Of a stretch of DNA of 64,000 nucleotides, positions 37,690 through 42,942 are shown one piece after another. Numbering within the stretch: position 1 is the first letter of the stretch; every line of letters begins with the position of its first letter. Under the pieces are notes generated by a model. The model searched no databases. It saw only the letters and a program-made list of their open reading frames with translations, and was not told the DNA's origin. The position numbers were made by a program, and so were the translations under genes. This DNA comes from Escherichia coli (GTDB lineage Bacteria; Pseudomonadota; Gammaproteobacteria; Enterobacterales; Enterobacteriaceae). The stretch lies in NCBI RefSeq assembly GCF_051903065.1, contig NZ_CP178438.1; one strand, given 5' to 3'.

Positions 37690-38105
37690 CGGATTATCAG
37701 CCATACAGGAAAGGAACTGTGCTTGCCCCAACTGGGCCATGCAATCATCTTCATGTGATTTGTAATGATCCTGTTTATTACCCCGTTAACGATTGTTATT
37801 GTGTTTTAGTTGTTAATATTTCTAGTATCAAGGATGGTGTCCCCCACGATCCGTCTTGCGTCTTGAATTCTGGTGATCATCGCTTTATCAAGCATCCAAG
37901 TTATGTTGTTTACGCTGAAGCTATAATTTGGCGAGTGGATAACATGGTTAGAAAGCAGCGATCGGGTGAGATTTCTGTTCATGATGATATGCCAGAAGCT
38001 ACATTCAATAGAATTCTGGACGGTTTTGATATCTCTGATGAAGTTACGCCAAAGAACCTTAAATTTAAAAATAAATATTGCGTATCATCTATTGATGATG
38101 AGTAA
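37686..38105 (+). CDS. Hypothetical 139-aa protein translationally coupled to the Panacea-like gene (candidate toxin/effector)
   Basis: ATGA start/stop overlap at 37686-37689; no family recognised; Cys/His cluster CNHLHVICND...DCYC. Confidence 0.5.
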   Translation: MTDYQPYRKGTVLAPTGPCNHLHVICNDPVYYPVNDCYCVLVVNISSIKDGVPHDPSCVLNSGDHRFIKHPSYVVYAEAIIWRVDNMVRKQRSGEISVHDDMPEATFNRILDGFDISDEVTPKNLKFKNKYCVSSIDDE

Positions 38106-38145
38106 ACAACAGGAATTGTTTCGGTATAACTTCAGGAGTTTTCTA

Positions 38146-38319
38146 TGGAAGATCAAAAAGCAACCAAGCCACAGGTTAAGTTCGACACAATGAAAGCATT
38201 CGCAGGTATGGGTGCTGCTGTTGAAGTTCTGATGAAGGCTGCTCCTAATGCGTTCACTCACGCTACTGTCTCTGGTAAAGAGCAGCAGGGTAAGCTTCGT
38301 CGTCGCAAAGCAGCATGAT
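38146..38319 (+). CDS. Small hypothetical protein (57 aa)
   Basis: ATG at 38146 (MEDQKATKPQVKFDTMKAFAGMGAAVEVLMKAAPNAFTHA...) ending just before a strong terminator; below the ORF-track size cutoff. Confidence 0.35.
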
Positions 38320-38337
38320 CATAGCTGGTGCTTTTTG

Positions 38338-38366
38338 AAAACCCGCCTTTAGGCGGGTTTTTTATT
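38338..38366. terminator. Rho-independent (possibly bidirectional) terminator
   Basis: aaaacccgcctttaggcgggttttttatt hairpin with flanking A and T runs, between convergent genes. Confidence 0.7.
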
Positions 38367-38647
38367 TAGTGATGTTCTTTGCCCTTCTGTTTGCTTGTTC
38401 TGACCTGTTCCCACTCGATACGTCCTTCTTCTCGTCTTTTGTCTATGTATTCCGCAAGATCCTGAATATTGATGCAACGTTTTGCTTTTTGTGATGTGCC
38501 GATGCGATATGTTGGAACGGGCAACTTACAAGCGTTTGCTTTTGCTTCTGCCGTGGCTGGACTCATGCCAAAGTACTTTTGGCTAACTGCTGAGAGTTCA
38601 ATGTTAGGGGTATTGAATTCAGCCATCAGTAAAAACAAGGTGTTCAT
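38366..38647 (-). CDS. Excisionase/PrtN-like small DNA-binding protein
   Basis: ORF 38366..38674; likely start at MNTLFLLMAEF (GGAG RBS); basic C-terminus; position at prophage end. Confidence 0.5.
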   Translation of the reverse strand: MNTLFLLMAEFNTPNIELSAVSQKYFGMSPATAEAKANACKLPVPTYRIGTSQKAKRCINIQDLAEYIDKRREEGRIEWEQVRTSKQKGKEHH

Positions 38648-38683
38648 AATTTTCTCCATCAAAACCGGCTGCACCCGGGAAAA

Positions 38684-42323: not shown

Positions 42324-42942
42324 TCGCTAGCCATTTTGCTGCTCCTCATCATATCGACCCTGCAAGGTCGGTTGGTTTCTCCACAAAACAGAGAAGAACA
42401 CCTGCGGTGGTAGCCGCCCGGATGGATTGGGTTATGAGCCCGTCGTCCGGTGATGCTCTTCTCTGTTTTGTAAAAAGAGCGGTACCAGCCGGAAGCAAGT
42501 GTACAAACTGGTACCGCCAAAGCAGTGGCTGTTGTGGTGGGGTTGTCACTCAGGCGTATGGTCAACCTGACAATCCGGTGTCCTCAACGGGGAAAGAGTA
42601 ACCCCGCCATACTTACCGCCGCGCCATTTCGCGGATTACCACAACGCTGAGAGCACTTAGCCAGTTACGGCACCACACTTTGTCGAGGTTCCATAAATGC
42701 CCTCATCGTTGCACCCTGGTCTCTTCCCAGGCGTCAAACCGAATCGCCACGCTGGTTAGGCGTCTTATCAGCATCCTCATTGACTTGCACATTCCGGCTA
42801 CCTGGTTTGTTTGCCCGAGCAAGGAGTGGATTGTCCCCTTTAACGTCCCCAGACCGCTAACGACGCATGTGCCATACGCCGTGTTACAACCAAATTTTGT
42901 CAGGACCTTGTTTGTTGGTCTGGAAAGAAAGATAAAATGAAA

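Follow-up and report, generated by a model that had tools for sequence, protein, structure and literature searches.

We consider it probable that a 57-codon open reading frame (ORF), located in a 64,000-nucleotide stretch of Escherichia coli DNA (contig NZ_CP178438.1 of assembly GCF_051903065.1; hereafter the window), is the intact but orphan second gene of a two-gene phage cassette, whose first gene, gp23, was swapped for a Panacea toxin-antitoxin (TA) pair, and that it is now a nearly neutral relic. The family to which it belongs, PHROG 2741/mEp460 gp24, is already catalogued, and of the pair, only the stranded half is present in the window. A wrong annotation is avoided in this way, as the small ORF is not to be counted as a third part of the Panacea module. 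It also led us to a conserved cassette formed by a GNAT-fold protein and a partner of ~57 aa, present in Enterobacterales, Haemophilus and Shewanella. In addition, the locus is a clean natural case in which cassettes were exchanged as modules at the end of a prophage and selection on the stranded gene relaxed measurably.

The coding sequence of the small ORF, a gp24 homologue, occupies positions 38145-38318 on the + strand, as established from the ORF list, the phrog_2741 match and the dN/dS analysis; its frame runs from an ATG at 38145 to a TGA at 38316-38318 and its translation is MEDQKATKPQVKFDTMKAFAGMGAAVEVLMKAAPNAFTHATVSGKEQQGKLRRRKAA. By reading the sequence, we found a Shine-Dalgarno motif, AGGAG, at 38134-38138 (+), 6 nt 5' of the ATG, and the DNA alignment showed that GGAG or GAGG is kept 5' of the ATG in all gp24 relatives. 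The stop codon is followed by a short 3' UTR, TCATAGCTGGTGCTTTTTG (38319-38337, + strand, delimited by DNA alignment), which is nearly invariant even among relatives with a dS of 0.5-0.7. Many E. coli chromosomes carry the window DNA around the small ORF with 100% identity. The initial annotation had described an unannotated 57-codon ORF starting at 38146 and ending before a strong terminator. We recovered the frame, its 57 codons and its end before the terminator from the sequence, the ORF list and the terminator scan, but the ATG lies one base to the left, and the ORF is unannotated only in the ORF track used at that time: the RefSeq/PGAP entry is the hypothetical protein WP_000390072.1 and phage records annotate the gene as well. 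With 90 mechanical ORFs of 30 aa or more in 8 kb, the length of the small ORF is within chance, and its reality therefore rests on purifying selection and on conservation across genera.

The small protein matches phrog_2741 over its full length (residues 1-57 of 57, E=8.4e-36) and is the counterpart of gp24 from the functional lambdoid phage mEp460 (YP_007112098.1), with 98% identity (RefSeq WP_000390072.1/WP_000654815.1); the gp24 gene is also present in phages SKA5 and Lys8385Vzw. Homologues were found in Salmonella, Enterobacter, Atlantibacter, Cronobacter, Franconibacter and Hafnia, and searching 1.84 billion representative proteins with a profile yielded 13 clusters, with members down to ~35% identity. 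The family shares the motif FDT..AFa.MGAAvevL.KAAP...(Q/H)G.., followed by a basic tail that almost always ends with Ala-Ala, and in our alignments every invariant family residue is present in the window protein. This conserved basic tail ending in -AA is reminiscent of ClpX recognition tails, such as those of ssrA and MuA. Pairwise dN/dS values of the small gene range from 0.06 to 0.19 at dS 0.28-0.71, and variable sites are distributed 16/16/46 over codon positions 1/2/3. The small ORF is a genuine protein gene, under purifying selection at the level of the family. When the small protein was modelled alone by AF2, one helix was predicted (residues 15-37), with low to modest confidence (pLDDT 53-81). 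No match was found for it in Pfam, NCBIfam or PDB sequences, where gp23 gave nothing useful either, and neither protein matched the PADLOC v2 HMMs at E<=0.1. In the literature, we found no paper characterising the gp23-gp24 cassette and no function recorded for PHROG 2741. The window gene and mEp460 gp24 share, in dusA-integrating lambdoid phages, the same neighbouring excisionase gene and the same terminator; however, mEp460 has gp23 upstream, whereas the window has the Panacea pair instead.

A lambdoid prophage integrated at dusA has its left end in the window. Host genes (lexA-side dinF, yjbJ, zur and a DUF2713 gene) are followed by a truncated 5' piece of dusA at 36759-36863 (+), which corresponds to the left prophage junction, attL (PGAP pseudogene, attP-side alignment), and the early-left genes of the prophage (yfdP/Q/R, exonuclease, PrtN-like) are on the - strand. 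The gene order of the phage is dinI(-), int(-), attP bearing a dusA 5' mimic(+), cargo(+), gp24(+), terminator, excisionase(-), exonuclease(-), and this order places the small ORF in the att-adjacent cargo slot, opposite the integrase end of the prophage. DNA alignments delimit a swapped-in cargo cassette at 36924-38130 (+), with a left breakpoint at ~36924 and a right one at ~38130, the latter falling on the small ORF's ribosome-binding site; native gp23-gp24 homology resumes at this position and breaks off just upstream of it. The cassette comprises a promoter-like site at 36962-36990 (+, promoter scan), the Panacea antitoxin gene at 37117-37689 (+, Pfam SocA_Panacea 2e-19) and the Panacea-linked toxin gene at 37686-38105 (+), which has a 4-nt ATGA overlap with the antitoxin gene. 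In the window, gp23 and a structured spacer are replaced by this Panacea module, and no gp23 homologue is present within the window.

Some features of the cassette and its border were also noted. The segment 36864-36923 is conserved phage backbone, common to both cassette types. PGAP places the start of the toxin at 37719, which gives a protein of 128 aa; a 139-aa form, used in the SKA5 and Lys8385Vzw records, starts at the antitoxin stop via the ATGA overlap, an overlap typical of coupled TA genes. The toxin belongs to no Pfam family and matches only phrog_19071.

In this lineage of prophages, an exchange of ~1.2 kb at the dusA-proximal cargo slot took out gp23 and the gp23-gp24 spacer and put the Panacea antitoxin-toxin pair in their place. 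It spared gp24 from its ribosome-binding site onward, plus the terminator common to the excisionase operon, and the new operon therefore probably still includes the ORF as a transcribed and translated third cistron. Its co-transcription with the Panacea pair would start from the 36962-36990 site or from the host dusA promoter; indeed, the latter faces the cargo cassette, so that the cargo and the small ORF could be expressed from it in lysogens. The ORF would then be translated from a good ribosome-binding site and yet serve no function, gp24 presumably evolving as a nearly neutral relic after the loss of its partner.

In mEp460, this partner, gp23, is a GNAT-fold gene of ~177 aa and the native order of the cassette is gp23 then gp24. 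Among viral contigs recovered with a gp23 profile, gp24 is found 116-201 nt downstream in 80 out of 80, and every diverged gp24 has a gp23 homologue directly upstream. Diverged relatives carrying the pair come from Hafnia, Serratia-like metagenomes, P2-like E. coli phages, Haemophilus and Shewanella. In Hafnia and several metagenomic phages, gp24 (67-70% identical) sits in the interval from the antiterminator Q to the holin, and in Brenneria just after a cI-like repressor; in all of these a gp23 homologue of 172-181 aa is directly upstream. The most distant gp23 homologues (30-45% identity) each have downstream a recognisable gp24-like ORF with the family motif. The downstream ORF has 58 aa in the P2-like E. 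coli phage, where the gp23 relative is between gpA/dinI and the portal gene, 54 aa in Haemophilus, where it is next to capsid genes, and 57 aa in Shewanella, where its gene cluster also encodes a DNA methylase. The pair occupies various cargo slots (att-proximal, Q-holin, cI-adjacent, P2 gpA-portal hotspot). This last position is the old/tin defence hotspot (PMC9122126), and no GNAT or acetyltransferase system is named in the papers on the P2 hotspot. As the cassette is located in recognised phage cargo/defence slots and matches no PADLOC v2 family, it is a candidate new TA or defence system. Judging from its gene neighbourhoods, the pairing of gp24 with gp23 is obligate, and gp23, not Panacea, is its true partner.

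The native gp23-gp24 spacer, 116-200 nt long, has four to five conserved hairpins, one of them just 5' of the ribosome-binding site (E. coli O157, L002:3815-4013, with equivalents in L008 and L099-L111). Within the one at alignment columns 137-157, base changes in some pairs are compensatory or G-U-compatible, a pattern suggesting that the spacer could be a structured RNA leader controlling gp24. This spacer is missing from the window and is only 5 nt long in Haemophilus. A 45-codon upstream ORF present in the O157 spacer, and fused to gp24 in two database proteins, was also considered and rejected since it is not conserved in relatives. In the Hafnia and metagenomic phages (L014-L022), a RelA_SpoT (toxSAS-like) gene (PADLOC PDC-S33, E=1e-112) is located between the antiterminator Q and gp23-gp24, about 1-2 kb upstream of the pair, forming a stacked cargo island at a late-operon moron site. 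The avian pathogenic strain APEC E18005 has an orphan Panacea-type copy on its chromosome and a full gp23-gp24 pair on the 205-kb plasmid pEND_Eco 18005 (NZ_CP126947.1; L003), in a prophage fragment next to psiA and hok.

We then considered how the two proteins might work together. When gp23 and gp24 were fused in a single AF2 model, gp24 gained short strands and its residues ~13-53 reached a pLDDT of 88-97, with a pTM of 0.82; the fusion is artificial and was modelled from 19 paired sequences, with no PAE, coordinates or negative control behind the pLDDT figures. The model predicts that gp23 and gp24 form a complex. Based on this prediction, gp24 is most likely a neutralising or regulatory partner of the GNAT-fold gp23, in a TA-like arrangement, although models with an enzyme plus its substrate or an enzyme plus its activator fit the same data. 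The GNAT/RHH TA systems (TacAT, AtaRT, KacAT, ItaRT) likewise combine a GNAT-fold protein with a small binder on mobile elements, the binding being a prediction for gp23-gp24. In contrast to these systems, the gp24 gene is downstream of gp23 and not upstream, an intergenic structured spacer separates the two genes, and gp24 consists of a single helix and a basic tail, with no RHH/DUF1778 domain and no Pfam match. Moreover, gp23 is at least as close to N-terminal acetyltransferases such as RimI and Naa20 as it is to the TacT toxins. It is conceivable, though we hold it only tentatively, that gp23-gp24 is a new TA-like or abortive-infection defence cassette, in which a GNAT-fold effector is checked by a short protease-labile helical protein, and which moves between phage defence hotspots. 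The window would then represent one TA-type module displacing another, the old antitoxin being left as a decaying relic or as cross-immunity.

To compare selection on the orphan and paired copies, we analysed 70 Panacea-type and 70 gp23-linked alleles, with a neutral expectation of 0.77 nonsynonymous. The Panacea-type (orphan) alleles contain 3 synonymous and 16 nonsynonymous variants, which is indistinguishable from neutrality (p=0.59), whereas the gp23-linked (paired) alleles contain 9 synonymous and 3 nonsynonymous variants (p=1.7e-4 versus neutral); the two distributions differ by Fisher's exact test (p=0.0019). Several of the orphan nonsynonymous variants affect family-invariant residues (A20, V26, L29, A33, P34, K50, A56 and A57), and frameshifted, truncated or start-less alleles found in databases are mostly of the orphan 'ME...' type. 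The orphan copy is thus under relaxed constraint after the loss of gp23 and appears to drift without selection. An adaptation to a new role could in principle produce an excess of nonsynonymous variants, but the 16:3 ratio is statistically compatible with the neutral expectation. The window allele is intact and its sole difference from the gp23-linked allele is K2E; the case for loss of function consequently comes from population data, this copy giving no sign of it. Since one swap may have given rise to all Panacea-type arrangements, there is a single event behind the observation that gp24 can survive without gp23, and not the reverse. The situation resembles that of orphan antitoxins and decaying TA remnants, in which one partner is kept after the loss of the other and selection is relaxed, with the qualification that the TA status of the ancestral pair is only inferred here.

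These data also bear on the idea that the orphan is an antitoxin that has been kept, as an anti-addiction or immunity factor against the GNAT-fold protein encoded by gp23-type phages or plasmids that enter or share the cell. The predicted binding of gp24 to gp23 in the fused model is in line with this idea, as are the intact window allele with its good ribosome-binding site and the circulation of both cassette types in E. coli, where strain E18005 has an orphan together with a plasmid pair. However, orphan alleles gain frameshifts and nonsynonymous changes at invariant sites at about the neutral rate, and we regard such a retained immunity function as unlikely.

We give a similarly low probability to a self-sufficient small protein, for example a regulator or a lysogenic-conversion factor, whose linkage to gp23 would reflect shared descent only. 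In the same loci gp24 is more conserved than gp23 (89-95% versus 66-75% identity), and the spacer that separates it from gp23 in most members could contain a promoter for gp24. But the pairing persists down to 30% gp23 identity and in at least four different genomic slots, the AF2 confidence for gp24 depends on gp23, and constraint falls where gp23 is absent.

The small ORF starts 39 nt after the stop of the Panacea toxin gene, on the same strand and with no terminator between them, just downstream of the candidate TA module as the initial annotation had placed it; in position it is the final cistron, behind the Panacea pair. It had also been suggested that the ORF might be a third component of the cargo module or, alternatively, an independent small protein. 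A third component of the Panacea TA module (chaperone, regulator or second antitoxin) would explain this proximity, with the terminator after the ORF and not before it, and the presence of the ORF after each of 65 near-identical copies of the module recovered from viral contigs by a toxin search. In contrast, conservation next to Panacea modules in other genomes, which had been put forward as a check, was not observed: in viral contigs, none of 14 diverged modules (toxin 70-86% identity) has the small ORF, at least 12 of them being followed by over 2.3 kb of sequence. The toxin gene of one of the 14 directly abuts the excisionase gene, and another module sits among tail genes. Moreover, the ORF was detected in 561 of 5426 complete E. 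coli genomes, 204 with the Panacea pair upstream and 358 with gp23. The ORF is thus older and more widespread than its link with Panacea, being elsewhere always paired with gp23; a homology breakpoint separates it from the module, and selection on it is relaxed in exactly the Panacea context. A role as third component is therefore very improbable. The proposal of an independent small protein was correct as regards a real small protein gene, but not as regards independence, since its obligate partner, gp23, is absent here. On this comparative evidence, the small ORF does not seem to be a third TA component and the Panacea module of the window looks like an ordinary two-gene system. Described PanAT systems are two-gene modules (PMC8832971); in the window the small ORF is their immediate neighbour and is probably co-transcribed with them, whereas diverged PanAT homologues are without it. 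None of the five protein accessions involved was found in the supplements of two Panacea/NetFlax papers.

The least probable explanation, which we practically discard, is an RNA-only region (sRNA, 3'-end element or terminator) with an incidental ORF: the 3' UTR and the terminator are indeed more conserved than synonymous sites and a published prophage sRNA is known in this phage type, but no Rfam family was detected at threshold, the third-position variation and low dN/dS indicate selection at the protein level in the family, and the published RNA, sRNA-17, maps 4 kb off, at ~42.5 kb. With the Rfam 15 covariance models, the region gave terminator-like matches only, all below the gathering score. 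sRNA-17 of E. coli K1 RS218 is an ArcA-regulated prophage sRNA (PMC7719688). We rejected its identity with the small-ORF transcript, since a primer-derived 40-mer matches exactly positions 42479-42518 (+), near yfdP. An inverted repeat, GGTACC...GGTACC, occurs at that site, which also overlaps a mechanical ORF of 197 aa on the - strand.

The 3' UTR of the small ORF leads into an intrinsic terminator hairpin at 38338-38363, found by terminator scan, folding and DNA alignment. It has the structure AAAACCCGCC-TTTA-GGCGGGTTTT followed by a T-run, its core being CCCGCC/GGCGGG between an A-tract and the T-run, and the scan gave an 11-pair stem with 6 GC pairs. Folding energies are about -17 to -19 kcal/mol for the + strand (z -3.4) and -16.2 kcal/mol for the - strand (z -4.9), and across relatives the stem is invariant and the loop variable. 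From its sequence the terminator should be strong on the + strand, and it could act on the - strand too, where the U-tract is just 4 long. On the other side, at 38366-38674 (-), is a PrtN-family excisionase-like gene (Pfam PyocinActivator 4e-23), the last of the early-left operon, whose mEp460 counterpart is annotated as excisionase. As the hairpin is 2 nt from the stop of this convergent gene, it lies between two converging transcription units. It would stay useful to both operons, and it is probably the part of the finding with remaining functional weight.

A second variable slot was observed between the small ORF and the excisionase gene: ETEC H10407 has a CoiA-like gene at this place (L004:4352-5386), and one Salmonella prophage has an HTH/2TM gene (L012:5381-5848).
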